Origin: an uncultured Nitrososphaerota archaeon
GTDB lineage: Archaea > Thermoproteota > Nitrososphaeria > Conexivisphaerales > DTJL01
NCBI GenBank assembly: GCA_963842885.1
Contig: CAWJIE010000003.1
Location: 512,459 to 576,458, forward strand
Direction: 5' to 3'
Length of the DNA: 64,000 nucleotides
Part shown: positions 3,351 to 55,404 of the stretch, one piece after another
Numbering within the stretch: position 1 is the stretch's first letter
How the letters are laid out: each line of letters starts with the position of its first letter
The notes under the pieces: generated by a model
What the model saw: the letters and a program-made list of their open reading frames with translations, nothing else
The model's database searches: none
Told to the model about the DNA's origin: nothing
Translations under genes and position numbers: made by a program

Positions 3351-3405
3351 GCCTCGTCCCTGGACAGCTTGTCCGCCCTCTTCTGCTCCGCCTCGTAGAG
3401 CGTGT
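3351..3405 (-). repeat. Internal fragment of gene B
   Basis: gcctcgtccctggacagcttgtccgccctcttctgctccgcctcgtagagcgtgt matches 55092-55146. Confidence 0.9.
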
Positions 3406-3492
3406 CGAGGAGTCTCAAGGCGCTAGAAGCCCACAGGGGGGGGCAGGTGGAACAATGTATTTTACGAAGCGCACAATGAGATAGGATCGAGG

Positions 3493-3708
3493 GTGACTCA
3501 AGTGGGCGTAGTCGGCGGACCCAAGGACCTCGCCAGGGGGAGGACGAAGTTCATCGAAGAGGCGCTAAAGGACCTGAGCCCAGGCTTGAAGGACGACGTG
3601 ATGCAGGTCTTGAATGCCTGGGAGGGGGACCCATCGGAGGCGAAGCTCGCGAACCTCGTGGGGAGGGAGAAGGCCAGGCGTCTCGTCCAGTCATTTGGAG
3701 TGAAATAG
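3493..3708 (+). CDS. Hypothetical protein (71 aa)
   Basis: ORF with gene-like codon usage and AT-rich upstream box. Confidence 0.6.
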   Translation: MTQVGVVGGPKDLARGRTKFIEEALKDLSPGLKDDVMQVLNAWEGDPSEAKLANLVGREKARRLVQSFGVK

Positions 3709-3805
3709 GACGTCATTTCGCTTGCGGCTCGTCATCAGCTTCTGCCGGATGTGAGGCGAGGGTTGGGACATTGCAAGGGCTGGCCCTGAGCGCGACGCTG
3801 GCGCG

Positions 3806-4471
3806 TTGACGCGGTGGCAGGACTTGGAGCTAGAGGATTTCGTGGGGAAGTACGGGGAGCCCTTTTCGAAGTTGTTGGGCATCGACCTCCAGTCTAGGAA
3901 GAAGGAGGAGATGGTCAAATGGTTCCTCGCCTCCATCCTTTACAGCAAGCCCATACGCGAAAGCGCAGCCACTCTGACATACAAGACTTTCGAGAGACAT
4001 GGAGTTGCAGACGTCGAAGGGATCCTGTCTACGGGCTGGGGCGGTCTGGTGCGAATCCTGGACGAAGGAGGCTACACCAGATATGACTTCAGCACGGCCA
4101 CCAGGCTGCTCGAAGTGTTCGGCCATCTGAAGAGTGAATACGCCTCGGACCTCTGGAACTTGTACGACCGCTCCTCCGATGGATCTGAACTTGAGAAGAG
4201 GCTGAAAGGACTCGGCAAGGGCATCGGCGATACCACGGTGTCGATCTTCCTGAGGGACATGAGACACATCTGGCCGAAGGCGTGCCCCAACCCGTCTCCG
4301 CTGGTGAGACTGGCGATGGCAGAGCTGGGCATCGATGACCTGGCAGAGATGGCAGAGCGAAGGGGCATGGACGCCGTGATGTTAGAGACCGCCCTGCTCA
4401 GGCTTGGCAAGGATTTCCTCAGAAAGGGTAGGAAGGTCGACGTGAAAGTGGTCAAGGCACTAAGGGTCTGA
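3806..4471 (+). CDS. HhH-GPD superfamily-like protein
   Basis: KWFLASIL...LDEGGYTRYD...LKGLGKGIGDTTVSIFLRDMR helix-hairpin-helix motif. Confidence 0.7.
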   Translation: MTRWQDLELEDFVGKYGEPFSKLLGIDLQSRKKEEMVKWFLASILYSKPIRESAATLTYKTFERHGVADVEGILSTGWGGLVRILDEGGYTRYDFSTATRLLEVFGHLKSEYASDLWNLYDRSSDGSELEKRLKGLGKGIGDTTVSIFLRDMRHIWPKACPNPSPLVRLAMAELGIDDLAEMAERRGMDAVMLETALLRLGKDFLRKGRKVDVKVVKALRV

Positions 4472-4530
4472 TATGATTCGAGGCCGTGCGTTATCACCGG
4501 ACGCCCAGGTTGGTCGCGCACGAGCGACGA

Positions 4531-4599
4531 GCCTCGAAGGCGGTTTCCATCCTGAAGCTGCCGGGGAGCGAGCCGGTGATGCCGAATCCTACGTATTGA
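4531..4599 (+). repeat. 3'-end fragment of gene A
   Basis: Encodes ASKAVSILKLPGSEPVMPNPTY*, versus ASKAVPILKLLGSEPIVLNPMY* at the end of 10496-11032. Confidence 0.88.
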
Positions 4600-4653
4600 C
4601 TCCATATCCCGTAGGTTTAACTAAGGCTGTCGGCGTGATGATCCTAGGTCAGG

Positions 4654-5238
4654 ATGTCTCGAACGCTCCTCATCGTGCCCAGGATTTATGCGAAGAGCGA
4701 ATTCAGGGAGGCCGTATCATACGTTCCTGACGATTACGACGCCCAATCAGAAGAGTTCTGGACCTATGTGGCCGACAAGTTAAGGGCCTTCAGGGGCCGC
4801 ATCAGATGGGTCTTCCGGGAGTCCCTGTCAGGAGATACCGAGGAGGCCTTGAAGGAGGCGAGCGGAGATGAGGGGCGGGGCCTCTCTCTCATAACAGGGC
4901 TCATCGAAGAGGGGGCGAAGCTGAAGCCGACCGAAGATCGCATCCTCGTGGCTGAAACCGAGTCCTGGCTGAAGATGATTAGAGGTTCGTCGAATGATGC
5001 GCTGGTGGGGCTCTACGAGCAGAGCCTTGCGGAACGCAACCACCACATCTCAGACCTCATAGACCAGTCCCTGGGCGAGGGTGAAGTCGGCCTGCTGCTC
5101 ATCGACTCAAGGCGCAAGCTGGAACTCCCGAAGGATATCCGCATCGTCAGGGTCCTCCCCTTTGATCCGGCGGACTACCTGAACGCGGAGATCGTCAAGG
5201 CCAGGCTGAGGTTGGGGAAGACCCAGGGCGGTGGCTGA
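4654..5238 (+). CDS. Hypothetical protein
   Basis: 194-aa ORF overlapping the start of the downstream aminopeptidase. Confidence 0.75.
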   Translation: MSRTLLIVPRIYAKSEFREAVSYVPDDYDAQSEEFWTYVADKLRAFRGRIRWVFRESLSGDTEEALKEASGDEGRGLSLITGLIEEGAKLKPTEDRILVAETESWLKMIRGSSNDALVGLYEQSLAERNHHISDLIDQSLGEGEVGLLLIDSRRKLELPKDIRIVRVLPFDPADYLNAEIVKARLRLGKTQGGG

Positions 5239-6373
5239 TGCAGTCATGTCTGAAGTCCCAGATTACTCTGCGCTCGTCAGGGAGGTGTTCGATACTTGCC
5301 TAGGCGTGAAGCCGAATGACAGAGTCTGGATAGATGGCTGGGACCACACCCTCGACCTGGCGAGGGCCTTCGAATCTGAATGTGTGCGGAGAGGATGTCC
5401 CCGGCTGGTGACGGTGAGACACGAGGACACTTGGCTAAGGTCAATACTCGAAGGTCCGACGGAGCGTCTCAAGGCCGTCCCTCCGAAGGTGAAGGCGGCA
5501 CTGGCGAAGGTCGATTTCTATATCTTCACCATGGGACCCAAGAAGCCGGTGCCGTGGGACTCGATCCCTAGGAAGAAGAGGGAAGCGGTCTCGGTCTGGC
5601 TGGACACGCGCTACGACAAGACATCGTACGCAAGGAATTGGGCGAAGATAGCCAAGGCTCACCGAGTCAAGATGCTCGCGGTGGAGGCGACGTTGGCGAC
5701 GCCAGAGAGGGCGAAGAGCCAAGGGTTGAACTACGAAGAATGGCGTGATGTAATGCTACGGGCATGCATGGTGGACCACAAGGAGCTTGCTAGAAGGGGC
5801 AAGGCGCTGGCCAAGGTCCTGTCGGGGAAGGGAAAAGTCCGCCTAGTGACGCCTTCAGGCACACACCTGAGTTTGGCTCTCGACCGTAGGCCGGTCGAGA
5901 TATCAGACGGTATCGCCACGGAGGAGATGGCCGAGGAGGGAAGGGTCACGTTTCTTCCCGCAGGGGCGATAGAGGTCTCGGTGGACGAAGGAAGCGCTCA
6001 TGGCAGGATAGTCTACGATGCGCCCGTCCGTCTGGGTGATGAGATGATCGAGAACCTTGTTGTCGATCTGAAGGATGGGCGGATCTGCGAGTTCGAAGCA
6101 ACTCGAGGGGCCAAGGCATTCGAAGAATACGTGGAGAAAGGGGGAAGGGACGCCGGGCGCTTCGCCTTCTTTGGATTCGGGCTGAACCCGAGCCTCCGGC
6201 ATGGCTTCACACAAGATGACAAGGTCCTGGGCGGAGTGACGCTTGGCTTCGGCAGCAACGAATCGATGGGTGGGAAGAACGTCGCAGTCGACCAATGGTG
6301 GGCGTCCATCGCCAACGCGACTGTCAGGGTAGATGACACGATGATAATGGACAGAGGAAAGCTGCTAGTCTGA
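5231..6373 (+). CDS. Aminopeptidase, M29 (thermophilic metalloprotease)-like
   Basis: LVTPSGTHLSL...FLPAGAIEV...FGFGLNP...DDKVLGGVTLGFGSNESMGGKN; some metal ligands look substituted. Confidence 0.8.
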   Translation: MADAVMSEVPDYSALVREVFDTCLGVKPNDRVWIDGWDHTLDLARAFESECVRRGCPRLVTVRHEDTWLRSILEGPTERLKAVPPKVKAALAKVDFYIFTMGPKKPVPWDSIPRKKREAVSVWLDTRYDKTSYARNWAKIAKAHRVKMLAVEATLATPERAKSQGLNYEEWRDVMLRACMVDHKELARRGKALAKVLSGKGKVRLVTPSGTHLSLALDRRPVEISDGIATEEMAEEGRVTFLPAGAIEVSVDEGSAHGRIVYDAPVRLGDEMIENLVVDLKDGRICEFEATRGAKAFEEYVEKGGRDAGRFAFFGFGLNPSLRHGFTQDDKVLGGVTLGFGSNESMGGKNVAVDQWWASIANATVRVDDTMIMDRGKLLV

Positions 6374-6574
6374 GGGAACGAAAGCGGTGCTCTACCTTTG
6401 ATTGCTGGCATACGGGCCTGCCTTCTTGTGAAGGCGTAGAAGGCAGAAGGTTGTGGCCCATTTTAAAGGCAGAACGGTGTCGGTGAAGACAGAGAAGGTA
6501 TCTGCTCCTTTGAATGATGATTCGCTCGAAAGCTCAGACATAAATATCATTCTACAGTAGGCGCAAGTGCGTCC

Positions 6575-7090
6575 ATGGGCAGTCAGTCCAGCATCGAAAT
6601 CAGGCAGGCGTCATTGAAGGACCTTCGACCCATCATGCGTCTTGCGAACAGATGCATCCTAGACCTGGCTGGAACCAAGCGTAGGAGGATCTTCCAGGTG
6701 ATTTCGGACAGGATCAAACTTGACCTTACACTGTATCCCAGAACTTGCCTGGTCGCCTCTAACGGCAGGGGGTTGGTGGGTTTCTCGCTGACAGAGGCCA
6801 CTGGCTCATACGCTTCCATATTCCTGCTCGCCGTCAACCCACAGTACAGAAGGAGAGGTGTGGGGTCGGCGCTGGTCTCTGACACGCTCAATCGACTAGC
6901 GGATGAGGGAGTCGAGTACGTCGAACTCATGACCTCCCTGGAGAACGAATCCGCTCAATCCTTCTGGATGAGGCAGGGCTTCACAGACGCTAAGATGAAG
7001 GTCTTCTCAAGGGTCTCAAGGCGACGCAATGCTCGGCGGCAGACTCAAGCCTTCAAGCTAGAGGAAGACGCAAGAGCCAAGGGAAGATAA
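6575..7090 (+). CDS. GNAT N-acetyltransferase
   Basis: LAVNPQYRRRGVGSALV...NESAQSFWMRQGF. Confidence 0.9.
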   Translation: MGSQSSIEIRQASLKDLRPIMRLANRCILDLAGTKRRRIFQVISDRIKLDLTLYPRTCLVASNGRGLVGFSLTEATGSYASIFLLAVNPQYRRRGVGSALVSDTLNRLADEGVEYVELMTSLENESAQSFWMRQGFTDAKMKVFSRVSRRRNARRQTQAFKLEEDARAKGR

Positions 7091-7300
7091 CGTAACTCTG
7101 GGTGCTAGCTGCTGGGCCTCTGTCCTAGAGGTCGAAAACCATTCAGCCCTCGGTCTTGCGTGCGCTCATCCGGAAGAGGATTCCATCTAGAACTGCTAGA
7201 CTCCGTTTCATTGATGCTTGAGCGTGGTCTTTTCCGTAGGGCGCATGTCGACGTTAGGGCATTTGGCTGCCAGACTTCGCCGGTGTCCCTGTCCCCGCCG

Positions 7301-7906
7301 TCAGCTGGGCTTCGCCTTCCTCCATGCCATCCCCTTGCCTAGCGGGATGGTTCCTGGGCCAATGACGGAGTTGGTCACTATCGCGAAGCTGGTGTACGCC
7401 GCCAAGGAGGCGGTGATGATGCCGAGGTACCCCCCTATGGTCGTCAGGGAGGGGATGCCGTAGAGGTCGCCCGCCCCGAGGACGAAGAAGGTAATCCAGA
7501 GGAAGAGGAAGACGAGGCTCAGGGCGCGGTTTATAGTCGTGGACGGTATCCACATATAGAGTGTGAATATCCCCCAGAGGATGAGGGTTGCACCCACTGC
7601 GCTTGAGATGGGCGTTATCACCTTCATGCTGGCGAGGAGCACCAACAGCGCGTAGAAGAGCCAGAAGGCGCCATAGCTGCAGAAGGCCGTGAACCCGAAA
7701 GTGTTTCCCTTCCTCATTTCGAATACCCCAGTCAGCAGCTGGCATAGCCCTCCGTAGGCCAGCGCCAGCGGCAGCAAGACGTCCACCGTCGCGGCTGGAA
7801 GGAGCCCGGCGTTGGCGAAGCTGAGCAGGAAGGTGGTGAAAGCGAAGGCGGCTAACCCCAGAGAGGCGGGGTCGGCCGCGAGGGCCTTATCGGTGGCGAC
7901 GCTCAT
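7301..7906 (-). CDS. satP: Acetate uptake transporter, GPR1/FUN34/YaaH (SatP) family
   Basis: [27 protein letters not shown] motifs; 6 TM; overlaps the acs stop. Confidence 0.92.
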
Positions 7907-9870
7907 GATGTTGCAACTCCGGCAAGCGCAGCCGCCAATTCTGCCTTCAACTCCTCGTAGCTCTGCTTTGCCTCCTCTATGCTCGTTCCGTCCTCCAAAG
8001 TCGTGATGTCTCCCAGCGCCCTCTCTTCGACGATGGCTCCCAGCAGGCGTCTCATGATCTTCCCGCTCCTGGTCTTGGGTAGCTTGCTGACGAAGTAGAT
8101 ATTCTCTGGTGCGGCTATGGACCCAAGGTTGTGTCGCACATGGTTTATCAGCTCCACTCTCAGTTGTGGCGACGCCTTGCTATCTGGCCTGAGGGTGACG
8201 AACGCCACGGGTACCTGCATCTTTATCGGGTCTGCCTTCCCTATCACCGCCGACTCGGCCACGGCTGGATGAGAGATCAACACGTCCTCTAGCTCGGTTG
8301 TGCTGATCCTGTGGCCAGCGACCTTGAGCACCTCGTCGGCCCTCCCGAGGAACCAAAAGTAGCCATCTTCGTCTTTCATGGCATAGTCCGATGCCAGGTA
8401 CATTCCAGGGATCTTCTTGAAGTATGCCTCCCTGAATCTCTTCGGGTTCTCCCAGATGGTCATGAGCTCTCCCGGCCATGGCCTCTTTATGACCATGAGG
8501 CCCTTCTCATTGGGACGAGCCGACCTACCATCTTCTGTGATGACGTCGGCATCAACACCCGGCAGGGGGAGCGTGGCAGAGCCTGCTTTCAGTGGGATAT
8601 GGGCGATCCCTGGCTGAGGGGAGACCATTATGCCTCCCGTTTCAGTCTGCCACCATGTGTCAACGATTGAACATCGGTGGTTCCCCACGTTCTTGTAATA
8701 CCACTGCCAGGCCTCGGGATTGATGGGCTCGCCCACCGAACCGAGCAGACGAAGAGAGGACAGGTCGTGCTTCTTCACCCAGTCTTCCCCATACTTCATA
8801 TGCATCCTGATGGAGGTCGGAGTCGTATACAGTATGGTGACGCCGTACCTTTCGATCATCTCCCACCATCTGTCAGGGGTAGGGTGATCGGGCGCGCCCT
8901 CGTACATGAACGAAGTGACACCTCTCAGAAGCGGGCCATAGACCACGTAGGAATGGCCCGTAACCCAACCGATGTCCGCCGTGCACCAGAAGATGTCCTC
9001 GTCTTGTGCATCGAAGACCACCTTCTGTGTATAGTAGGACCAGAGCATGTAACCAGCCGTGCTGTGCACCACACCCTTGGGTGTGCCCGTCGTGCCAGAC
9101 GTGTAGAGGATGTAACTGGGGTGGGTCCCCTCCAACCTTTCCGGCTCTACGGTGACTCCCGCGGGCTTCGTCAGCTCGTCATACCAGATGTCTCTGTCTT
9201 CGACCATGTTCGCTTCCCTGTTGGCCCTCCTGATGACGATTACCTTTTCGATGGTGGAGGTTTCCTTCAGGGCCTCGTCGACCACCGACTTGAGTTCGAC
9301 CAATTTCCCCCTCCTGTAGAAGCCGTCGGCCGTGATGACCGCCTTGCTCCCAGAGTCGTTGATGCGCTCGGCGACGGAATGGGCGCTGAAACCTGAGAAG
9401 ATCACGGAGTGGATGGCTCCTATCCTGAGGCAGGCCAGCATGCTGATGGGGAGCTCGGGTATCATCGGCAGGTAGATGGTCACTCTGTCCTTCTTCCGGA
9501 CGCCCAGCTGTTTGAGGACCCAGGCGAACCTGTTGACCTCCTTGTAGAGGTCGTAGTAGGTGAGGATGCGGCGGTCCCCGTTCTCCCCCTCCCAGTAGAA
9601 AGCGACCTTGTTCTTCCTCCAGCTCTTGACATGTCTGTCGAGGCAGTTGTACGATAGATTTGTCTCCCATTTGGGGAACCACCTTCCGTACGGGGGTTCG
9701 TCCATGCTTTCGAACACCGGCCCAGACTTCTGATACCAGAAGAGCTCGTCTGCTATATTGCGCCAAAAATTATCAGAATTCTCGAAGCTTTTGGAGTGAA
9801 TCTCTCTTAGAATCTGGATGCTGGGGTGAAACCTTTCATCTGTTGGCAGCACATCCTTAACTTCTGCCAT
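7903..9870 (-). CDS. acs: Acetyl-CoA synthetase (AMP-forming)
   Basis: [33 protein letters not shown]. Confidence 0.97.
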
Positions 9871-10044
9871 TGTGGTTCACGGTCTAAACACAGTCAATTT
9901 AAACCTTCGCAATTATGGCCCCCTGCGCCGACATGGTCGTATGGTTGCTAGTCTTCAAAGAAATGGCTTGATTGCTCCCCTCTGATGCTCTAATATTACG
10001 TATGAGGCATCAAGTCGTTTGCGGAACACTGGAGCACTTGGCTG

Positions 10045-10254
10045 CTAGACTTCGACCGTGTCCCTATCCTTGGGGTCCAGGGCCTTCTTGAGTTGCTTCG
10101 TGACCCAGTCGGAGTTCTCTTCGTTCTTCAGCTCCCTGGCTGCCTCGTCCCTGGACAGCTTGTCGGCTCTCCTCTGCTCGGCCGTGTAGAGCGTGTGCAT
10201 GTCCTTGTAGGCCACCCTCTTCCCCTTCGTGTCCTCCTCGACTACGGACGACAT
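10045..10254 (-). CDS. Gene B, intact copy (69-aa charged protein of unknown function)
   Basis: MSSVVEEDTKGKRVAYKDMHTLYTAEQRRADKLSRDEAARELKNEENSDWVTKQLKKALDPKDRDTVEV*; TTTAAG box ~25 nt upstream of the ATG, also present at the 54995 copy. Confidence 0.8.
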   Translation of the reverse strand: MSSVVEEDTKGKRVAYKDMHTLYTAEQRRADKLSRDEAARELKNEENSDWVTKQLKKALDPKDRDTVEV

Positions 10255-10495: not shown

Positions 10496-11032
10496 TTGCG
10501 CCCAACGGTGATTAGCCTCGACCCTGCCTCCCCGGTGATAAGGAAGCTCCCGCTCGAAGTGCAGTCCGTGCTGGCGAAGCTGACCAGCATCGAGAGGGAG
10601 CTCGTCGAGGAGAGCAGGGAGCACAGCTGGGTGTGGATTGGGGACACAATTGTGGGGCGACTGGTGGGGAGGGACGTCTACACCATGGATTCCTTCGAGC
10701 GCGACTTCCTTCCCTCGGACCCGCCCGCCACGAAGGAGCCCCCTCTCAGGCCGGAGGGGGTGGCGGTGATACCGGGGTTCACCTCCGGGCCATGCCAGCC
10801 CCTCCTGATAGTGGTCATGGGGGCCTACGTCGACCACGAGAAGCTCATACTGCAGACGATCGAATACGTCTCCACCCGCTGCCGGGGGGCGACGAAGTAC
10901 GTCGTCTTCTACGCCATCTCTTGGAACGGCGTGGCCTGGGCCGAGCACAGGGACTCGTTCAGGGCCTCGAAGGCCGTCCCCATCCTGAAGCTGCTGGGGA
11001 GCGAACCCATCGTCCTTAATCCGATGTATTAG
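10496..11032 (+). CDS. Gene A, intact (hypothetical, ~175 aa), divergent from gene B
   Basis: Long ORF ending GSEPIVLNPMY*; its C-terminus recurs three more times in the window. Confidence 0.8.
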   Translation: MRPTVISLDPASPVIRKLPLEVQSVLAKLTSIERELVEESREHSWVWIGDTIVGRLVGRDVYTMDSFERDFLPSDPPATKEPPLRPEGVAVIPGFTSGPCQPLLIVVMGAYVDHEKLILQTIEYVSTRCRGATKYVVFYAISWNGVAWAEHRDSFRASKAVPILKLLGSEPIVLNPMY

Positions 11033-11044
11033 TGATCTGAAGCT

Positions 11045-11178
11045 AGGCGGTATGCATACCTATTACGGGTTCAAGTCTGAATGAGGGCGATACAAGGTAT
11101 TCATAATGTGAACTTGTGACATCAAAGACATCGAGGAATGTTGTCGAGGATTTCGATCATACGCATGCCTGTCTCACT
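11045..11178 (+). repeat. Element E copy 1 (~107-bp core, conserved arms)
   Basis: tacctattacgggttcaagtct ... catgcctgtctcact; arm spacing 108 bp as in the other copies. Confidence 0.7.
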
Positions 11179-11239
11179 CCCTGCCGCAACTCGCCCGGCC
11201 TTCCTAAGCCTGCCCGGAGGAAGGAAGAGATCTGACCGA

Positions 11240-11908
11240 TTAGCTGTATCCCTTCGAAACCAATACGTAGAGGACGTCCGACGCGTCCTCGGCATTGTCT
11301 GACACGTTGTCGACCATGTCGATGAAATCCCTGAGCTGCAGCACGGAGAGGACCGAGACCTTCAGGGTGAATACCAGCTCGATGAGTGTGTCCTTGATGG
11401 AGTCCGCAGCCTCCTCATACTCTTCGACCTCCCGGGCGTACCGCAGGAGCTCCCCGTTCCTCTTGCCAAGGGTCTCGATGGCTTCGCGCAAGGAGGATAC
11501 CGCCTTCACGGTCACGGCCAGGTGTTCCTTGACCTTGTCTCCTATGGGCGCCAGCTCGGAGGCTTCGAGGCGCCTCTGAGTGATTATCTTCCCCGCGGTC
11601 TTGGCGCTGTCGGCCACTCCGTCGACCTTCTCTGCCAGGTTCATGAAGTCCGTGCCAAGGTTGGAGAAGAAGACGCCGTTGGAGAGCATCTCGACCAGGC
11701 GCCGATGGACGTGGTCGGCCTCCGTCTCGGCCTTGTCTATGTCCAGATAAGTGAAGTACGCGGTCTTGGGGTCGCCGGCCATGAGCTCGTCGACGACTCT
11801 TTCCAGAAGGCGCGTCGCCGACAGACTGAGCTCGACGTGGACCATGAGCAGCTCGAGGATCTCCTTCTCTCCCGCGCTGAAAGGATGCAGCCACTTTAGG
11901 GGGTTCAC
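11240..11908 (-). CDS. DUF47 / PhoU-like phosphate transport regulator
   Basis: ETEADHV...EEAADSIK...DNVSDNAEDASD repeats. Confidence 0.88.
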   Translation of the reverse strand: MNPLKWLHPFSAGEKEILELLMVHVELSLSATRLLERVVDELMAGDPKTAYFTYLDIDKAETEADHVHRRLVEMLSNGVFFSNLGTDFMNLAEKVDGVADSAKTAGKIITQRRLEASELAPIGDKVKEHLAVTVKAVSSLREAIETLGKRNGELLRYAREVEEYEEAADSIKDTLIELVFTLKVSVLSVLQLRDFIDMVDNVSDNAEDASDVLYVLVSKGYS

Positions 11909-12091
11909 GGCCGGGATCCTTTGGATTTGTGGTCGGAGACGGCCTATAAATGCCTAGGCCGGGGCACTACTACGGCGCCAGGCCGAAGGTCTCCCTGTCT
12001 CCTCAGACGCCGGCTCGACTGACAGGCTCTCGGAACATTTAATTATCGACCGTCAGCCGAGTTTCTACACTAGGACCGAGATGCTAGTGCT

Positions 12092-13552: not shown

Positions 13553-13662
13553 TGGAGATGGAGGCCACGGGATCGTTGAGCCACTCCTCCGCACTCGGCC
13601 CATCGACGGCACGAGACAAAAACATAAGAGCCTCTCCTTCGCATTCACTAGACAGAGAGACC

Positions 13663-14535: not shown

Positions 14536-14655
14536 GCTTCGAGGATGTTCGGGTCCTTCGGGTCCAGGACCTTCTTGAGCTGCTTCGTGACCCAGGCGGA
14601 GTTCTCTTGGTTCCTCAGCTCCTTGGCGGCCTCATCCCTAGAAAGCCAGTCGGCC
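14532..14655 (-). repeat. 3' fragment of a divergent gene B allele
   Basis: ADWLSRDEAAKELRNQENSAWVTKQLKKVLDPKDPNILEA*; its stop overlaps the USP stop. Confidence 0.88.
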
Positions 14656-43611: not shown

Positions 43612-43681
43612 CCATACCTGCAGAGGAGCAGGCTGGCGCGGAACGGGAGCGCCCCACCGACCTCGTGACTGGAAGGTTAGG

Positions 43682-45529: not shown

Positions 45530-45560
45530 CTAGACTTCTACGGTGTCCCTGTCCTTGGGG
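45530..45560 (-). repeat. Gene B 3' fragment (31 bp)
   Basis: ctagacttctacggtgtccctgtccttgggg. Confidence 0.88.
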
Positions 45561-47986: not shown

Positions 47987-48196
47987 GAGTCACTTCATTC
48001 CTTTGTGCCGGACAACATCAACCTGTTGCCAAGACGGAGATGAATGGTTGAAGTCGCAAATAAGCCTGCCCATAGGACATCCCTGCGACGAGCCTTCACT
48101 GCACAAGTCATGGATGCGCGGCTAACAAGTCTCAAATTACAAACAAGGCCTTCTAGCTCCCATTGAGGCTCTCAACCGTTGCAACGAAATCCGGTG

Positions 48197-48233
48197 GGCC
48201 CTCTTCCACTCTGCCTCGTAGAGCGTGCGCATG
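48197..48233 (-). repeat. Internal fragment of gene B
   Basis: ggccctcttccactctgcctcgtagagcgtgcgcatg. Confidence 0.75.
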
Positions 48234-49302: not shown

Positions 49303-49354
49303 CATCCTGAAGATGCTGGGCTGCGAGCCGGTGGTGCTGAATCCCATGTATTAG
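49303..49354 (+). repeat. 3'-end fragment of gene A
   Basis: ILKMLGCEPVVLNPMY*. Confidence 0.88.
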
Positions 49355-49488
49355 TCGAGCGATAGTCCGCCTTCCTAACGGTTCTCCCTTCACAGGCTTC
49401 GTCGTTCCATCAAGACCATACCGCGCGCCGCGCTGGGCAAGGATTCCGTTATGTCAGCAAGACTTGTTTAGGTGGGATTCCGGAGCCC

Positions 49489-50340
49489 TTGCTGGGCGAG
49501 CGGCGCGTGGAAAGCAAATCCTTCGGCTGGACGGCAAGGCAGGTGACAGCGCTGGGGATGGGTACCTACTACGACTTCCCGTGGATCATCAAGTCTCGGG
49601 CGGGCGTCGTCGGGGGAGGGGAGGCGAAGGTGGCTGCACTGAGGGCGGGGCTCGATGGCGGCATCCGCCTGATAGACACGGCTGAAGTCTACAACTCCGA
49701 GCCTCTTGTCGCCAGGGCGGTCGACGGATTCCCGAGGGAGGACCTTTTCATCGCCACCAAGGTGATGTTCCTCCACCTGCGGCACGACGCGCTCGTGAAG
49801 TCGCTTGAGAGGAGCCTCAAGAAGCTGAACTTGGGCTACGTCGACCTATATCAGGTCCACCAGCCAAGCCCCTTCGTGCCCATCAAGGAGACCATGTCCG
49901 CGATGGAGGAGATGGTGGATAGGGGCCTCATCAGGTACATAGGCGTCTCCAACTTCTCGCTCAAACAGATGGTCGAGGCGAACGATTCCCTGAAGAAGTA
50001 CCGCCTCGCGTCGACCCAGATGCCCTACCACCTCGCCGATAGGCGGATGGAGAAGGAGATACTTCCCTACTGCAGGAAGGAGAACATGGCACTTCTGGCG
50101 TACTTCCCGCTGGGCCACGGGAAGCTGACCTCCAGCAGGGTATTGTCGAGCATCGGGCAGAAGTACGGCAAGACCGCTCCTCAGGTGGCGCTCAACTGGC
50201 TGCTCTCCCAGGAGAACGTGTTTCCCATCCCCAGGGCCTCAAACAGGGCGCACGTCATGGAGAACATCGGGTCCGTCGGCTGGAGGATGTCGGCCGAAGA
50301 CAGGTCCGAGCTAGAGAACGCCTACCCTCCTCCGGTCTGA
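49489..50340 (+). CDS. Aldo/keto reductase
   Basis: IDTAEVY, IATKV, DLYQVH, IGVSNF, IPRAS. Confidence 0.95.
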   Translation: MLGERRVESKSFGWTARQVTALGMGTYYDFPWIIKSRAGVVGGGEAKVAALRAGLDGGIRLIDTAEVYNSEPLVARAVDGFPREDLFIATKVMFLHLRHDALVKSLERSLKKLNLGYVDLYQVHQPSPFVPIKETMSAMEEMVDRGLIRYIGVSNFSLKQMVEANDSLKKYRLASTQMPYHLADRRMEKEILPYCRKENMALLAYFPLGHGKLTSSRVLSSIGQKYGKTAPQVALNWLLSQENVFPIPRASNRAHVMENIGSVGWRMSAEDRSELENAYPPPV

Positions 50341-50404
50341 CCAGGGGACCTTGTCAGAGACCCTTCTTTCGTGAGCAGAAGAACATCTAGCCGTAGAGGG
50401 AACT

Positions 50405-50570
50405 GGACCGGGCGGGCTCTAAACCTGAACGGGTTCAAGTCACTAAAATTGGATGTAAAATCTTCAAAGTAGAATTAAATTATTACTACTATGACTATAG
50501 TTTGTATACAAAACTTGTGTTATTCTCATACCCGTTTCATTGGGAGCCGCGTCAACCACCGCACGAGTCG
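50405..50570 (+). repeat. Element E copy 4
   Basis: acgggttcaagtc...acaaaac...ttattctcatacccgtttcattgggagccgcgtcaaccaccgcacgagtcg; arm spacing 107 bp; abuts a gene B fragment. Confidence 0.85.
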
Positions 50571-50630
50571 CGACGGTGTCCCTATCCTTGGGGTCTAGGG
50601 CCTCCTTCAGTTGCTTCATGACCCGGCCGG
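50571..50630 (-). repeat. Gene B near-3' fragment
   Basis: cgacggtgtccctatccttggggtctagggcctccttcagttgcttcatgacccggccgg. Confidence 0.88.
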
Positions 50631-50694
50631 GACAGGAACGCAGGATGAGAATCGCCGTCGCGGAAGCGCAATGAACCCTAGCAAGGCCCAGATC

Positions 50695-50988
50695 CTATTT
50701 CTCGAATCTGACGAGGAGAATGTACTTCTTCTTCCACCAATCGTAGTTTGTGATTCGGACAGTCTTCACCTGAGCTCTAAAGAAACCCTCGAAGCCCGTC
50801 ATGTCAGCTGTAAACAAATCACAATCATTCTTCTCGCAGAAGACCGCAATATCCTCGTCGCTCGCTCTCTCCGGTAGGGCGTCATCTCCTCCGACTTGGA
50901 ATGTTATTTGATAATCATCCGAGATTTCCTTCTTTCGTTCCTTTGCCCATTTCTCAATCCCCTTGTCGATAACTATATTTTTCGCCAA
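50695..50988 (-). CDS. PIN-like (DUF5615-type) protein
   Basis: IVIDKG...ASDEDIAVFCEKNDCDLFTAD..F. Confidence 0.6.
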   Translation of the reverse strand: MAKNIVIDKGIEKWAKERKKEISDDYQITFQVGGDDALPERASDEDIAVFCEKNDCDLFTADMTGFEGFFRAQVKTVRITNYDWWKKKYILLVRFEK

Positions 50989-51257
50989 GACATAGAACGA
51001 GGTTGTTCTACGGAGATTTATCGATTACGTCCACAATCTCCCTTCGGGTTCACCACTCGGGTTATCTAACTCAACTCCTCGATGAGAAACGCCCGGGCCG
51101 AGGTGCTATGAGCCATATATGGCCACAACCTCTTCTCGCAGCCCTTCAACCTGTATTCTTGGTTGGCTTCAAAATCTGAAGCTTGACTCGCGGCAGAAGA
51201 CTTTTCAGTTCGTTATATTGACTAATGGTCGACAAACTCGGAGCAGGTTTTTTGGAT

Positions 51258-51707
51258 TTGGGTACAAGGAACGCCGGGGACTTCAGCCAATTAACAAATC
51301 AATCTAGGGCCAATTCTCTGGGTTTGCGGATGATACAGTCAGCACTAACGTGGAACAAACCCTCTAGCATAGTCGTCAACACAGCTATAGACTTAGTGGC
51401 CTGGAACATACCAACTGTGGGCGTCCTTGTGGCGACCTACAAGGTCTCGAAAGTTCTGTATAAGATAGCGTCCAAGGCTGAGGAAGAGTATGGCAAGACT
51501 GGAGACGCTAACTCTGCTGCAACCGCTGCGACACAAGAAGTTGTAAAGAGTGCAGTAGACATGACACGGGGGGAAGCTATCAACACCGTCGTAGACGTTG
51601 GATGGACTGCAATCAAGAGTACCGCACATCTTCAAACAAACGAAGTGCAAGATAGAGTCTTGACCACGGCGGCTAAGAACACTCTCGATGAGGTCCTTCC
51701 AAAATGA
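51258..51707 (+). CDS. Hypothetical protein, possible QatB-like N-terminal half (starts MGTRNAG)
   Basis: In-frame TTG start inside ORF 51225-51707 gives M-G-T; operonic with the QueC-like gene. Confidence 0.6.
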   Translation: MGTRNAGDFSQLTNQSRANSLGLRMIQSALTWNKPSSIVVNTAIDLVAWNIPTVGVLVATYKVSKVLYKIASKAEEEYGKTGDANSAATAATQEVVKSAVDMTRGEAINTVVDVGWTAIKSTAHLQTNEVQDRVLTTAAKNTLDEVLPK

Positions 51708-51994
51708 ATACAGATGAGCTTGAGAAAGTAATGACCTTGAATTACAGTCAGGTTTTCCAGGAGATGCTCCTATCCGCCTTAAAGAGCCATCCGAAGTTGA
51801 CGCCTGATTATCTCTCCCAATCGGTTGCTCGTCAGAGAGAGATTGAAGAGGAAATAAAGGAGCGGTCAAGCAAAATGGCGGTTGCACTTGTCGGCAAACT
51901 GAAGGCGAAGGGCTACTTAGCTGACGAACCACCGGACGACGTATTGAAAGGTTTGATTCTAGCTATTATGCAAGAGTTCGGGGTGTCTCAATGA
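51704..51994 (+). CDS. Hypothetical helical protein
   Basis: ATGA overlaps with both neighbours. Confidence 0.75.
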   Translation: MNTDELEKVMTLNYSQVFQEMLLSALKSHPKLTPDYLSQSVARQREIEEEIKERSSKMAVALVGKLKAKGYLADEPPDDVLKGLILAIMQEFGVSQ

Positions 51995-53358
51995 GCAACA
52001 TCTGCGTTGCAAGGGACAGCGACATTAAGAGCGGATACGACTTCTTTCTGAGAACCTACTCTTCTGGAAAACAAAACGAAAGCAGAGTTTCTGTTAGTTT
52101 CCCAGACATGGATCCATACATTAGCAGCACTGACTTGGACCTCTGCTTTGTTGCCGCGGGGCTTTTTGAATATGAAAGCCTTCTCAGAAGGGAGGTTCTC
52201 CGTGGGGATGGGTCAATCACATTTGTCACTCATGACTCGACGGGGTTCGACAGCGACGGTGTGAGTTCGGCCCTCGAAGACCTTCTTTCGTTTACTATCA
52301 AGACCCGTCCCCGGGTGAAGATGATAGAGATGAAGAGCGACGCCCGAGCCTCGGTCAAGAAGTTCAAGAAGAAGAATTCTTGCACGTTGTTTTCAGGAGG
52401 CGTGGACAGCCTCTCGGGAATCACCAGAACAAATCAAAGCCTCGGGCCCACCTTTGGAATGTTCGTATCTCACGACCGGATGCTAAGCAGAGTGAACGCC
52501 ATAGAACAGACCTACTTGAAACCCCAGGGACTGCACATCCACAAGGCTTTGATTCAGAGGCCCCATACCGGGCTCCAACAGCTCAGAGGATTCGTATACC
52601 TTGTCTTTGGGGCTATCGCTGCTCGAGCTCATCAAACAGAGAATGTTGTGATTACAGAAACCGGTCAGACCATGTATCAACCTGAACTGACAGCGCTTGA
52701 TGAAGTAACAGTGACTACGCATCCTACGCTGATGCGCATAACGAAGAAACTTCTAAGGGAGATTTGTGGGAAGGACTTCCTCTTCTACGAACCATTCGAG
52801 AATTTGACGAAGGCGGAGGTTGTTTCCTTGTGCCAGAACAAACCAGGGATTCCATCGACCAATTCCTGCCGTACGACGCGATGGGCCAACTCGCCGATTT
52901 CCCATTGTGGTGATTGTTTTGGCTGTCTCATTCGGAAGGTTGCCTGTATAGTTGCTGGTGTAAAGGACGCTTCGTACGCCAAAGATGTGCTTATGATGGA
53001 CCTCGGAGAATCAGTTGAAGGAAGAAGGCCTAATGAAACTCTTAAAAAGGATGATTTAGTCGGGCTCCAGACCCTGCTCAGGTTCGCAAGAGACGATCTC
53101 GAAGACAAGCTCGACGACGTGGCAGCTTTCAAGATAAGATCGTTCGGGAAGGAGGAGCTTTACAATCGGGCGGCGCTTGATATCTTCGCCGCGCTTCATT
53201 TGTTGTACGGTAGAGATGGAAGTGGCAGGAACAAATGGGTCAGGGGTTTCTATGAGGAATGTAAACAGGATGGCGTAGTCAAGTCTGAAACGATAGAGAA
53301 TAGAATAGCCGAAGTTCGTAGTCAGAAATATGGGCCAAACTTCGCGTACAAGCTATGA
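51991..53358 (+). CDS. QueC-like PP-loop protein (QatC/Cap9-like defence clade)
   Basis: LFSGGVDS, ETG, TTHP, PF..LTKAEV, SC...HCGDCFGCLIR; 455 aa with N- and C-terminal extensions, unlike housekeeping QueC. Confidence 0.82.
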   Translation: MSNICVARDSDIKSGYDFFLRTYSSGKQNESRVSVSFPDMDPYISSTDLDLCFVAAGLFEYESLLRREVLRGDGSITFVTHDSTGFDSDGVSSALEDLLSFTIKTRPRVKMIEMKSDARASVKKFKKKNSCTLFSGGVDSLSGITRTNQSLGPTFGMFVSHDRMLSRVNAIEQTYLKPQGLHIHKALIQRPHTGLQQLRGFVYLVFGAIAARAHQTENVVITETGQTMYQPELTALDEVTVTTHPTLMRITKKLLREICGKDFLFYEPFENLTKAEVVSLCQNKPGIPSTNSCRTTRWANSPISHCGDCFGCLIRKVACIVAGVKDASYAKDVLMMDLGESVEGRRPNETLKKDDLVGLQTLLRFARDDLEDKLDDVAAFKIRSFGKEELYNRAALDIFAALHLLYGRDGSGRNKWVRGFYEECKQDGVVKSETIENRIAEVRSQKYGPNFAYKL

Positions 53359-53364
53359 CTCGAT

Positions 53365-54544
53365 TCATTGTTTCTTAAGGTATTCAGAAAACAGTGGATG
53401 AAACAAGGAGTATTTCCCCCTGCCATATCGCACTAGAAACTCTTTCCTTTCAAGCCTCGAGAGTAACACCGAGGCGCCGCTGAACCGCGGGAAATCGCTT
53501 GGTGAAACGAGTGAATCTTCGGTTTTTGCGATTTCGATCAGCAGTTCCCTTTCTCTCTCCGTGGCCGACCGCATCTTGTCAGCGAAGATAGTGTCAGCTA
53601 AGATGTCTCCGATGCCTAGGCCAGACCCTTTGAAAATCATTCTCCCCGATTGCTCCTGGTCCCCTAAATTGATTCATCATCTCGTACATGACGAGCATTA
53701 TGAGATACGGATGACCTACGGTCTTGCTTACGATCCTCCTGATGACGACATCCTCAACGGTGGTCTTACTGCCCACCAGTTGCAGCCTGACTTGGATAGC
53801 TTCCTTGGCTTCATCGAACGTAAAGGGTTCGAGTTTGTAACGCCTGAAGAACCTTAGAGTAGGCTCGGCCAATCCAGCAATTTCGGCAAACAACGATGAG
53901 GGCGCAGTAACAACCAATGAATAATTACATCTTCGGTTCACTAGTTCTTGGAAGGTTGTCTTCAGATTAAGGTAGGAGGAGTCCTCTGTCCTTATCGAAA
54001 AATAGTGAAGGTCATCAATGAGAACGAAAGCAATCCTCGCTCCTGATGGCTTAAGAGAATCATTCCAGAAGTCTTCGAGTGCCTTGGTGATGCTGGATTC
54101 TTCCTCTTCGGCCCTCCTACTGGCTCCAACGACACCTAGATTCAGATTGACATCCCATCTCCTAGCCTCTCCGGCAATCTTGGTTTTGTAAGTTGTGCTT
54201 GCCACAGTCCTTAACCTGCGTAGGAAATCTGTAGTGAATGCGTCCCAGTCTTTACCATACTGTGGTGACAATGGATAGTAGATGCAGGCACCACGCATTT
54301 CCTCCTTAAGATCTTCCAAGACTATCTGCCTGAACTTATACAGCAGAGATGTCTTTCCTTCTCCCGATGTTCCAAGTATGGCATAATTCACAGGAGTGGG
54401 GATTCGTAGCCTGGCGGAGTTAAGCGCCGTCGCCCTGAAATCGTCCAGGTATCTCTTCCTATCCGCAAAGTACTCTGGCTGGGCTGGATGCTGTGGGGAG
54501 AAGGGGTTGAGGCTATTATTTCTGTTATGATTGTTATTTGCCAA
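53365..54544 (-). CDS. AAA/STAND-like P-loop ATPase with C-terminal wHTH (frameshift ~53617)
   Basis: NPF...YFADR, GTSGEGKTSLL, VLIDD, GHPYLI; second frame ends LLSRLERKEFL..GRGKYSLFHPLFSEYL. Confidence 0.82.
54516..54539. repeat. 24-bp direct repeat copy (ttatttctgttatgattgttattt)
   Basis: One mismatch to 54684-54707. Confidence 0.85.
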
Positions 54545-54550
54545 CTCTCT

Positions 54551-54682
54551 CTACCTGTTAAGCCTGTACCGTTGGATTTTGGCGATTCCGTGGCAGGCCT
54601 TGTGAATCAAACGACCTCCGTAATACATCCCTTCCCCTTCGTAGACTTTCCTCCCACAAATGGCGCAGGTCTTGTAGCCCAC
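54551..54682 (-). CDS. 43-aa LIM-like zinc-finger protein (missed by the ORF track)
   Basis: MGYKTCAICGRKVYEGEGMYYGGRLIHKACHGIAKIQRYRLNR*; tttttaaaa box ~23 nt upstream. Confidence 0.7.
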   Translation of the reverse strand: MGYKTCAICGRKVYEGEGMYYGGRLIHKACHGIAKIQRYRLNR

Positions 54683-54683
54683 G

Positions 54684-54713
54684 TTATTTTTGTTATGATT
54701 GTTATTTTAAAAA
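54684..54713 (-). promoter_or_regulatory. TATA box plus 24-bp repeat (candidate operator)
   Basis: tttttaaaa-taacaatcataacaaaaataac-GTG on the minus strand. Confidence 0.6.
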
Positions 54714-54994
54714 CCTTGCCCATAGGTGGACTCGTTCAAGATAGCACAACTGTTCGAAAGGGCGAAGACATTCCGCTCGAACTGAGAGGTGAACTGAGTA
54801 TCTTACCCTGTTCTTCCGACTGTTGAATAATCGATTTCAGAATGTCTTGAAACATCCTAGCAAAACCTCCGTATTACCAAGAGTCTACTAGGAGCCGTCC
54901 AATGGGGGTCCGAATCGTCGGAACCCGCTAAGCTAGGCAAGACGCCTGATGTTCGACGCGCCTGACTCGAGGACCGTCAGGTTCTCCCTATCGT

Positions 54995-55204
54995 CTAGAC
55001 TTCGACGGTGTCCCTGTCCTTGGGGTCCAGGGCCTTCTTCAGCTGCTTCGTGACCCAGTCGGAGTTCTCTCCGTTCTTCAGCTCCCTGGCGGCCTCGTCC
55101 CTGGACAGCTTGTCGGCCCTCTTCTGCTCGGCCTCGTAGAGCGTGTGCATGTCCTTGTAGGCCACCCTCTTCCCCTTCGTGTCCTCCTCGACGACGGACG
55201 ACAT
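54995..55204 (-). CDS. Gene B, intact copy (69 aa)
   Basis: MSSVVEEDTKGKRVAYKDMHTLYEAEQKRADKLSRDEAARELKNGENSDWVTKQLKKALDPKDRDTVEV*; TTTAAG 25 nt upstream. Confidence 0.82.
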   Translation of the reverse strand: MSSVVEEDTKGKRVAYKDMHTLYEAEQKRADKLSRDEAARELKNGENSDWVTKQLKKALDPKDRDTVEV

Positions 55205-55404
55205 ACTATTCTTCAAGCTTGGGGCCTCCCTTAAAGGTGCACCTACCTTCTTTGTTGACAATCGGTCAACAGACATGATCGGTCGCCTTTCTCCTTCGGC
55301 CGAGGAGTTAACCCTATGTCAACCGAGTATCATATCTTGTTTCATTGACTATTCGGTAATCGGGCTCAGACTGCTAATAAGAGACATCCCCAACTAGCAA
55401 TAGT

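Follow-up and report, generated by a model that had tools for sequence, protein, structure and literature searches.

Tandem arrays at the 3′ ends of protein genes, and remnants that lack an integrase, have been described before (PMC6563490, PMC5704250, PMC8371274); what is said here of these and other published systems follows excerpts of the cited papers. In bacterial islands of the ICESt1 type and CIMEs, insertion recurs at the 3′ end of a single gene, which remains intact, the units are set apart by internal direct repeats of the gene end, and units without integration genes persist and can move with their neighbours (PMC5704250). Thaumarchaeal integrated elements, whose hosts belong to the same wider lineage as the archaeon studied here (relatives of our sequence are labelled Nitrososphaerota), target small conserved or hypothetical genes, supply the new gene end with its stop codon and are noted to integrate in tandem (PMC6563490). 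Integrons (sedentary chromosomal integrons, CALINs and archaeal integrons: 10.1101/2022.02.06.479319) alternate co-directional repeats of ~100 nt with cargo that is short, unrelated and in many cases specific to a strain; the newest cargo adjoins the platform, and an integrase-less array resembles a CALIN. Breakpoints in SSV-type integration fall inside a small element-linked gene, the 5′ and 3′ pieces of which stand at the borders (PMC7253208, PMC8371274).

The window analysed here (the whole stretch of 64,000 nucleotides) is part of an island of at least 85 kb in an uncultured archaeon of soil and peat, represented by a metagenome-assembled genome (G000) that is 87% complete and in 11 contigs. 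The island consists of blocks of unrelated genes, separated by co-directional remnants of a tiny gene, B, and of its partner, A. It resembles the systems above in the respects named for each. It differs from the ICESt1-type islands and CIMEs in that no unit of its ~85 kb has an integrase, about 22 remnants are present as opposed to 2–3, a second gene (A) is repeated too, homology stops exactly at the stop codon, and the host is archaeal. Thaumarchaeal elements are tens of kb long, come with integrases or casposases and have short att sites (13 bp in one example), and the excerpts of PMC6563490 do not describe a long integrase-less cassette array. Unlike an integron, the array has no IntI, its repeat consists of part of a protein gene and varies in length, the cargo is bidirectional with many multi-gene cassettes, and the ~100-nt B stub has no fold of the attC kind (single-strand folding not significant, z −1.6 and +0.4). 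The split gene in SSV-type integration is the integrase, whereas B encodes 69 aa without recombinase features and most of its stubs are 3′ pieces only. An earlier note on this DNA had proposed a candidate new cassette-accretion system; accretion of cassettes is also the reading favoured here, but a close precedent exists (PMC5704250, PMC6563490).

A BLASTN search (word size 7) of the assembly with the intact copy of B gave 18 pieces, all on contig C3 and all on the minus strand, spanning window positions −30110 to 55276. No match was found on the other 10 contigs of the 2.03 Mb assembly, and TBLASTN was concordant. Four of the 18 lie ahead of the window (at −30110, −11268, −7201 and −944). A 14-mer taken from the B end has 19 matches within the window against 6.1 expected from shuffles, and 7 of its 9 genome-wide matches with at most one mismatch fall inside the window in a single orientation. 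This search also recovered the copies at 26677 (11/14 matches) and 44330 (13/14) and an extra stub at 7270–7283 (12/14). With 4 shorter stubs added to the BLAST pieces, the total comes to 22 copies. All 15 co-oriented copies of the earlier note were thus recovered (12 by BLAST, 17815 by eye and 2 by the 14-mer), and the array is larger than it had claimed. Ten copies, the number it had given, end exactly at the stop codon (10045, 14532, 18355, 26677, 27405, 28266, 42896, 44330, 45530 and 54995), with different sequence past each of them, while the pieces at 3351, 20447, 48194, 50571 and 18391 are 3′-cut or internal. Many stubs are shorter than the class reaching from a breakpoint hot spot to the stop, or are internal. 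As to stub age, identity to the head copy gives no clean gradient along the array. The features of the window are as follows.

3351–3405, minus: internal B stub, codons 20–38, ending at the hot spot
4531–4597, plus: A stub, last ~22 codons to the A stop
7270–7283, minus: B 3′-end remnant, 14 nt (12/14), at the border of the acetyl-CoA synthetase block of relatives (block end 7271)
10045–10254, minus: second intact B, 96% aa identity and dS 0.18 against the head copy; the upstream repeat reaches 10327
10496–11032, plus: gene A, 178 aa, sole intact copy in this genome
11046–11103, plus: repeat P-X, directly after the A stop
14529–14655, minus: B stub, last 124 nt to the stop; longer in related contigs, with the same cargo boundary (14658)
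17799–17866: collapsed module, degenerate B 3′ stub (minus, to 17838) and A end (plus, 17835–17866, last 11 codons)
18355–18463, minus: B with an internal deletion, last 46 nt joined to codons 6–30
20447–20716, minus: B copy, 5′ part and promoter region intact, without the last 27 nt
26677–26690, minus: B 3′-end remnant, ~11 nt
27405–27506, minus: B stub of the ~100-nt class (hot spot to stop)
28266–28316, minus: B stub, last 51 nt
30257–30295 and 32661–32829, plus: further P-X copies
42896–43002, minus: B stub of the ~100-nt class, TAA stop; identical junctions in metagenome contig L045
44330–44343, minus: B 3′-end remnant, 14 nt (13/14); in the relative G002 a 64-nt B stub adjoins the same HNH gene
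45530–45560, minus: B stub, last 31 nt
48194–48233, minus: internal B stub, codons 18–31
49303–49355, plus: A stub, last ~17 codons to the A stop
50410–50570, plus: repeat P-X
50571–50630, minus: B stub, codons 48–67, without the last 8 nt, fused to repeat X
50631–54994: cassette adjoining intact B, with a QatC-like gene, a STAND/AAA ATPase and small ORFs
54995–55204, minus: intact B at the array head, 69 aa; hot spot in codons D36–A39 (55088–55101); conserved upstream DNA reaches ~55277

B is a real, selected gene, with a median dN/dS of 0.13 (60 pairs of 12 intact copies). It had been taken as the repeating unit by itself. The unit is instead a divergent B-A module of ~1 kb, in which A and the B copy at 10045 are transcribed away from each other and both ends are stop codons. 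Six pieces of A were found, all on the strand opposite to B, and the A stubs are co-oriented and end at A's own stop. The order A stop, cargo, B stop occurs four times (4597–10044, 11033–14528, 17867–18354 and 49352–50570), and repeat P-X provides another type of joint sequence where blocks meet. A is absent beside the head copy of B and none was found in G004. Neither protein has a family, fold or PDB match, and their predicted models, of low confidence (pLDDT 65 and 66), gave no significant fold match. B has 37 matches in a library of 1.84 billion proteins, among which ORFs that hold only its last 30–38 residues are recurrent. In the distant lineage L048, B (65% identity) is single-copy, lies beside HMG-CoA reductase and has no array.

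The junctions were counted over the genus and the metagenomes (Logan contigs, which are assembled sequences). Of 48 distinct 3′ junctions, 28 lie at the B stop as opposed to 2.4 expected, and 29 independent sequences follow it; the A stop forms the same sharp edge in 4 contexts. On the 5′ side, 11 of 30 distinct junctions fall at codons 36–39 (2.2 expected, Bonferroni P ~7e-4), and 9 stubs run from this hot spot to the stop with differing flanks on either side. Some other 5′ ends are later deletions within longer copies, as seen on comparing L059 and L031 with G000. The 5′ ends had earlier been described as ragged, and on that ground integrase insertion had been set aside; since they are clustered in part and others stem from later deletions, they do not exclude an integrase. 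A 9-nt motif like the hot spot, picked post hoc, is present 8–11 nt past the stop in 4 of the 29 flanks.

Near-identical metagenome contigs differ by indels of entire blocks. L049 and L035 (98–99% identical) differ by a 6.25 kb indel between two B copies, with the switch point inside B, in the first ~20 nt of homology; this sole mapped crossover is in codons 1–8, away from the hot spot. A contig of run X3 is without 17796–18354. In both X3 and L031 (where B is full-length) B directly adjoins the ECF transporter block, while G000 has an extra gene with A and B stubs between the B stop and the ECF flank, an insertion exactly at the B stop. L045 has a full B ahead of the cargo for which G000 keeps 31 nt (45530–45560), the junction of stop and cargo being preserved in the other context. 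These cases bear out the proposal that new DNA enters downstream of B. The ECF cassette and a cassette with a 147-aa gene are in swapped order in L031 and G000, and the blocks that G000 shares with G002 and G001 are rearranged, many of their ends being B, A or P pieces, so that cargo order is not identical among relatives; three control regions are collinear. In G001 several of the shared blocks lie directly against each other, no B stub being detected at the joint. Identity to G002 is 85–95% for array blocks against 71–88% for core regions. A mixed G002 bin may account for this, several genes being present there at both 91–94% and 78–85%.

Many of the cargo genes had been called defence-like, but the cargo is not mostly so, and much of it is ordinary (acetyl-CoA synthetase, ECF and phosphate transporters, XPB-Bax1 and a xanthine-dehydrogenase-like operon). 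The cassette at 50631–54994, with a GC content of 0.48–0.50, lies below the genome value of 0.58, and it matched nothing in the four congeners. That this low-GC, QatC-like block adjoins intact B agrees with the earlier idea that the newest DNA lies directly 3′ of B with older stubs displaced.

We favour, at somewhat less than even confidence, a reading in which integrase-less DNA circles accreted in tandem through recombination inside B and then decayed. It is very improbable that repeats have caused chimeric joins in assembly or binning and that the array is not as drawn. The genome is metagenome-assembled, incomplete and split over 11 contigs, and the relatives' contigs do break at these repeats, yet the junctions recur in two independent assemblies: L058 spans two stubs and matches at 99.2% over 9.8 kb, and L045 (96.4% identical) matches 2.7 kb that include both junctions. 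Contigs of runs X1 and X2, possibly from the source sample, cross the junctions at 14532, 17799–17866, 18355 and 26677, and the same architecture is found in G002 and many metagenome contigs. Classical serial integration, which we consider unlikely, would have each cassette once an autonomous element (a plasmid or virus) that encoded a tyrosine integrase of its own and whose attP was formed by the last ~100 nt of B, with crossover at codons 36–39; all integrases and mobility genes would since have been lost, so that CIME-like remnants were left. The preferred 5′ stub boundary is as expected from an att core; of 68 integrated elements of Thaumarchaeota, 14 have the 3′-distal part of a protein gene as their target, and a single site is known to be reused in tandem (PMC6563490), and integrase-less integrated archaeal elements have been ascribed to gene loss (PMC8371274). 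G000 encodes tyrosine recombinases outside the array, and L041 and L043 have an N-terminal integrase fragment ~2.3 kb upstream of B. But none of the 5 genome matches to PF00589 lies between C3:482348 and the contig end, and a phmmer search with integrases of this same genome had no match in the array or, apart from that fragment, in 45 loci (10 of relatives, 30 on metagenome contigs and 5 additional stretches of G001). A Pfam scan of 60 ORFs and genome-wide family searches revealed no HUH enzyme in the array and, in agreement with the earlier note, no integrase, transposase or reverse transcriptase. As regards the rolling-circle or retro-like transfer considered in that note, searches of G000 gave neither a Y2 nor an RT gene, and the one Y1 gene is on another contig. 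The cassettes are moreover small, and the genes in many of them are ordinary, host-like and of host GC. Hallmarks of viruses or plasmids were not found, and B and A have no match in the viral contig collection.

A dedicated cassette system, integron-like in its working but unrelated, is likewise doubtful in our estimate. Here the B-A module, or a host enzyme recognising it, would cut and join at the B and A stops, and the ~100-nt B end would be the recombination site of each cassette. The sharp edges at both stops, the unrelated sequences past them, the nine stubs from hot spot to stop, the recurrence of ORFs with the B end only, the orphan status of two conserved genes and the purifying selection on both intact B copies all speak for it. 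As opposed to this, there is no sign of A or B acting on DNA, the stub is without a significant fold, many stubs are shorter or internal, the head B has no neighbouring A, and the cargo genes point both ways and so share no common promoter logic. If the ~1 kb module were rather a small insertion element that landed repeatedly in an ordinary part of the chromosome, the cargo would be host DNA between insertions, reshuffled by recombination between copies. The sharp module ends, internally deleted modules (e.g. 17799–17866) and core genes in the cargo would fit; XPB-Bax1, for example, has one copy in 4 of the 5 genomes that were searched from outside the genus. We regard this as quite improbable, as all copies are in one orientation and one region with none elsewhere in 2 Mb, no terminal inverted repeats were seen on reading its two ends, no transposase-like family matches, and the observed indels comprise module and cargo, never the module alone. 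The outgroup neighbours of XPB-Bax1 are also not other cargo genes, a weak point given that synteny is poor among the outgroups too.

On tandem accretion, the incoming units would be 0.5–15 kb of DNA, most likely in circular form after excision from a comparable array, whether of the same cell or of a related one. Each would bear a B 3′ segment that ends at the B stop, and some would bear A too. Such a circle would recombine with the resident B inside the common B sequence, rebuilding an intact B at the head with the new cargo directly 3′ of its stop and leaving a 5′-truncated B behind that cargo. Repeated rounds would give co-directional B (and A) copies alternating with cargo, later deletions would shorten old copies to stubs, and recombination between any two B copies may remove, move or re-insert whole blocks. 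No circular form or transfer was seen among the Logan contigs. As the cassettes have no recombinase of a known family, the reaction would be done in trans, the candidates being host homologous recombination, a recombinase from another part of the genome, or the A and B proteins. Plain homologous recombination fails to explain why ~29 unrelated cargos start right after the B stop, and likewise fails for the sharp edge at the A stop; a sequence-specific step would probably set the junctions at the stop codon and at codons 36–39. The observation made in the earlier note is confirmed and its interpretation partly supported. Integrative elements are known to accrete at a gene's 3′ end, and on the best reading the array is a variant of this process in an archaeon.

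A BLASTN search of the whole assembly of the studied genome G000 (2.03 Mb in 11 contigs, 58% GC) with the intact minus-strand copy of gene B at 54995-55276 gave 18 pieces. All of them are on contig C3 and on the minus strand, between window positions -30110 and 55276, and four are present ahead of the window start (negative positions being those of C3 before it); TBLASTN gave the same picture. A 14-mer taken from the end of B has 19 matches against 6.1 expected. It recovers the short copies at 26677 and 44330 and adds another at 7270, and when at most one mismatch is allowed genome-wide, 7 of 9 matches lie in the window in a single orientation. One more short copy was found at 17799-17838. Ten copies in the window terminate exactly at the B stop codon, with a different sequence past the stop in each. 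The observation of the earlier note is thus confirmed. The array measures at least 85 kb and holds about 20 cassettes, i.e. gene blocks between the copies.

On testing the nature of B, the median dN/dS was 0.13 in 60 pairs drawn from 12 distinct intact copies, and the two intact copies in G000 differ by a dS of 0.18 and a dN of 0.025. B is present in all four other genomes of the genus (G001-G004) and in none of the 36 more distant relatives searched. A collection of 5.8 billion proteins holds about 49 close relatives of this 69-aa protein, and among 1.84 billion representatives a profile search gave 37 hits, for the most part close relatives or else ORFs annotated on stubs (remnants of B). 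B is a real gene. It belongs to no Pfam or PHROGs family, the best PDB match in a profile search had an E-value of 0.06 with no relative accepted, and AlphaFold models it, with low confidence, as a helical hairpin. Its sequence pattern had suggested a ribbon-helix-helix protein, but no tool supported this and the reading was dropped.

The junctions were pooled from G000, its four congeners and 30 metagenome contigs, after removing those with common flanks. Of the distinct 3′ junctions, 28 of 48 fall at the B stop, where a uniform model predicts 2.4, and 29 independent sequences follow this stop. At the other end, a 13-nt stretch at codons D36-A39 takes up 11 of 30 distinct 5′-truncated junctions when 2.2 would be expected there (P about 7e-4, corrected for the scanning window), and two stubs end inside this spot. 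The remaining 19 lie outside codons 36-39, some being demonstrably secondary deletions. The ragged 5′ ends of the earlier note are therefore correct only in part: the preferred B unit appears to be about 100 nt, and other lengths are traceable to later loss. As examples of such loss, the cargo block 3439-4485 is followed by B codons 51-69 in the metagenome contig L059 and by codons 20-38 in G000, and the stub behind the ECF transporter block begins at codon 10 in contig L031 and in the metagenome runs X1 and X2 as opposed to codon 29 in G000. In 4 of 29 flanks, against 0.33 expected, we also found words resembling GAGGCCGCC 8-11 nt past the stop; as this motif was chosen after inspection of the data, we keep it as a lead only for a second core after the stop. 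CTAG was seen by eye at a few block borders, and it is scarce genome-wide (3208 observed, 7516 expected). Where the 2963 block meets the 28349 block in G001, no remnant of B is present. The island is a real and statistically solid cassette island.

A second gene, A (178 aa), is repeated along with B, and a further repeat, P-X, accompanies the two:
10496-11032, plus strand, full gene A, divergent from the B copy at 10045
-26221, -11348, 4531, 17835 and 49303, plus strand, pieces of A
17799-17866, collapsed module in which a B stub is fused to an A stub
-11348 to -11177, collapsed module in which an A piece is fused tail-to-tail to a B piece
11046-11103 (after the stop of A), 30257-30295, 32661-32829 and 50410-50570, plus strand, repeat P-X

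Four copies of A terminate at its own stop, with four different sequences past it, and the order of A stop, cargo and B stop is seen four times in the window. Among the congeners, full copies and pieces of A are present in G001 and G002 and a trace in G003, and A was not found in G004; the large protein collection holds eight relatives. A has no Pfam family, no PHROGs family and no PDB profile hit. Its AlphaFold model is of low confidence, and Foldseek of this model against PDB returned nothing with an E-value up to 0.001. Repeat P-X consists of a T-loop-like word and a conserved tail of about 125 nt and has more copies in G001 and G002. It matches no Rfam family and no full tRNA in the assembly, and for 30100-33000 Rfam gave nothing with an E-value up to 1. 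ARAGORN found no tRNA, and Rfam no known RNA at the gathering score.

The cargo lies on both strands, many cassettes having 2-10 genes, and comprises ordinary and defence-like blocks, the region beside the head copy of B (intact, 54995-55204) being listed with them:
ordinary, acetyl-CoA synthetase with an acetate-channel gene
ordinary, M29 peptidase and GNAT acetyltransferase
ordinary, PhoU-like gene with a membrane/Usp protein
ordinary, ECF transporter; phosphoribosyltransferase
ordinary, XPB-Bax1 with another helicase
ordinary, xanthine-dehydrogenase-like operon; aldo-keto reductase
defence-like, QatC-like gene with an ATPase
defence-like, viperin-like radical-SAM gene with a glycosyltransferase
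defence-like, HNH protein; CHAT-like fragment
55405-56544, MauJ-like gene on the other side of the head B, from language-model features only
56767-62813, Hma-type defence system with an HmaA helicase of 1118 aa
60104-60913 and 60822-62813, HmaB methylase

The GC content of the cassette adjoining the intact B is 48-50%, and none of the congeners has a counterpart of it. HmaB is probably frameshifted, since it is split into two overlapping ORFs. Some further similarities were noted within the cargo. A 176-nt repeat (21597-21772 and 43463-43638, 83% identity) is the 3′ end of a zinc-ribbon gene at 43027-43611 that is duplicated next to the CHAT-like gene, and in G002 both blocks with this repeat adjoin XPB-Bax1. 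Two paralogous xanthine-dehydrogenase-like three-gene operons with 26-39% amino acid identity are present, one in the array (35350-39504) and one at about C3:471700-475400 (window -40757 to -37066). The protein at 33665-34504 combines a zinc ribbon with collagen-like triple-helix repeats and weakly matches a phage tail-collar domain; its block is 96% identical in L059, where it lies directly after a B stub.

Regarding the setting, the window covers C3:512459-576458, and C3 terminates at window position 64000. Collinearity with all four congeners stops at about C3:434,700 (window about -77,750), 47 kb ahead of the first B piece. As the collinearity in the C3 control region ends there, there are hints that a mosaic zone larger than the B array may span about 140 kb, up to the contig end. 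The window carries the archaeal markers TBP and XPB-Bax1, and the names borne by homologues and related contigs put G000 with the uncultured Conexivisphaerales, known from metagenomes of wetland, peat and soil. TBP and two neighbouring genes of unknown function form multi-copy families (window 2-793, 936-1604 and 2013-2684; also C3:164422-165818 and other contigs). G000 has four TBP paralogues, one of them 99% identical (C3:165195-165818), and G002 has at least four copies each of TBP and its two neighbour families.

We then compared the blocks between populations and relatives. Many joints in the metagenome contigs have sides of 21-52 nt inside repeats and are untrustworthy, and only the joint 17795/18355, confirmed by L031, and long pieces were used. 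The contigs L049 and L035 are 98-99% identical and differ by 6.25 kb between two B copies, the copy switch in L049 falling in the first 20 nt or so of a 172-nt common B sequence. A contig of run X3 links 17795 to 18355 via 28 nt, and L031 has the same 28-nt GC hairpin, with a full B on one side and the ECF block on the other. G000 instead has a 147-aa gene with one stub each of A and B, and these lie exactly from the B stop to the ECF-side flank. The ECF cassette precedes that of the 147-aa gene in L031, and this order is reversed in G000. The cargo 45529-43003 has a full B ahead of it in contig L045 as opposed to 31 nt in G000, with an identical junction of stop and cargo. The island is clearly evolving and still changing between near-identical populations. 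Blocks that G000 shares with G002 (85-95% identity) and with G001 also stand in another order in these relatives, and their ends are often at B, A or P pieces (e.g. window positions 7271, -881, -7203, 17835, 18368, 43017 and 4536). Three control regions of 20 kb, with 71-88% identity to G002, are for the most part collinear with it. The higher identity of the blocks would suggest a recent interspecies exchange, but several window genes have two G002 homologues, at 91-94% and 78-85% (e.g. acetyl-CoA synthetase, C77 and C2), which suggests either a mixed bin or a recent import. The three outgroup genera themselves do not agree on the neighbours of XPB-Bax1, and synteny is thus silent on whether module or cargo was inserted.

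In the search for an enzyme, Pfam scans of the window ORFs gave no recombinase within the array. G000 has five matches to PF00589, none in or beside it, and the recombinase genes found are as follows:
C5:9483-12106, tyrosine recombinases, two adjacent PF00589 frames
C3:398627-400198 and C4:323304-324512, other tyrosine recombinases
C5:361178-361660, serine recombinase, the sole match in G000
C5:213342-213695, IS200-type Y1 gene, the sole match in G000

The stretch C5:9483-13440 contains three neighbouring ORFs of about 400 aa, two with PF00589 and the third, 12331-13440, of 370 aa; it lies about 10 kb from a contig end and may represent a trio of recombinases. No overlap was found between the end of C3 and the integrase-bearing start of C5. 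No reverse transcriptase was found in G000, and a search for Y2 gave no match either in G000 or in the control genomes and is hence uninformative. The loci of relatives and metagenomes have no integrase except an N-terminal fragment in contigs L041 and L043, and neither B nor A was found in a viral contig collection. In L043 we also noted a DDE (rve) transposase gene (10572-11213) about 360 nt beyond the stop of a full-length B. Similarity to the reference is lost 5 nt past this stop, and contig L060 has the same flank.

Bacterial gene-capture platforms, namely integrons and the accretion of integrative elements, are well described, and to our knowledge archaeal ones are little described. An integron has an IntI-type tyrosine recombinase beside its array, which the G000 array lacks, and its cassettes are mostly single promoterless co-directed ORFs as opposed to the multi-gene cassettes on both strands found here. 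Its attC inverted repeats fold as a hairpin, but the single-strand folds of the stubs of about 100 nt are not significant against shuffles (z of -1.56, -1.54, +0.41 and +0.46 for two stubs on both strands), and an attC-like hairpin was thereby ruled out. MITEs and IS elements are dispersed in both orientations and have terminal inverted repeats and duplicated target sites, whereas the B copies are on one strand in one region, and no terminal inverted repeats were seen on reading both ends. Rhs/CDI systems combine a conserved 5′ part with variable toxic C-termini and an immunity gene; in the G000 array it is the 3′ end, of a 69-aa gene, that is conserved and repeated, and the Pfam scans gave no Rhs/CDI family. 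Capture by IS91/ISCR, IS200/605 or a retro-element would have an HUH (Y1/Y2) or RT gene nearby, and no Y1 or RT is present at the array.

The accretion of integrative elements (CIMEs included) is closer. In it, every unit is bounded by direct repeats of a target gene's 3′ end and the target stays intact at one end, which is true here. It would also have an integrase in a unit or in a related free element, of which only the fragment in L041/L043 is present, and a common att core; of the distinct 5′ junctions, 11 of 30 are at codons 36-39 and 19 are elsewhere. PMC5704250 describes how, in bacteria, integrative elements and remnants lacking an integrase accrete in tandem at a gene's 3′ end. For Thaumarchaeota, PMC6563490 places 14 of 68 elements in the 3′ part of a protein gene, and this paper and PMC8371274 note repeated tandem use of one site in archaea including Thaumarchaeota. 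The island differs from these bacterial and archaeal cases in the number of units, the absence of an integrase, the second repeated gene and the exact edge at the stop codon. We file it as a form of known site-specific accretion. The cassette accretion proposed in the earlier note is largely right, but its claim of a new type of system is not established.

In such accretion, a circle with a 3′ segment of B would recombine inside the resident B. The insertion would restore the head B, put the cargo directly past its stop and leave a truncated B behind the cargo, and repeated insertion of circles would build the array. Excision between two B copies would give a circle with the same two junctions, and because of this the junctions would travel with the cargo. 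Homologous recombination between B copies takes place demonstrably, or at least very probably. It cannot by itself give about 29 cargos that start at one base, and we therefore infer an additional sequence-specific step, for which a known recombinase acting in trans, the A/B pair or another agent are candidates. That a new recombination activity underlies the island is doubtful. We likewise consider it unlikely that the divergent B-A pair is a self-contained new recombination module, in which B-A or a recruited host enzyme would cut and rejoin precisely at the stops of both genes, making the island an archaeal platform for the capture, storage and exchange of gene blocks that needs no integrase, transposase or attC-type site.

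The joints of this island are pieces of one tiny orphan gene, in an array with no recombinase of a known family. With a site of about 100 nt, two small proteins A and B and a base-exact junction, it offers a testable substrate for the question of how archaea put together and swap flexible gene blocks, among them defence systems. If A/B or a new host activity drives the reaction, site-specific DNA rearrangement would gain a new class; if homologous recombination or an integrase acting in trans drives it, the accretion model would extend to archaea and to integrase-free cassettes.
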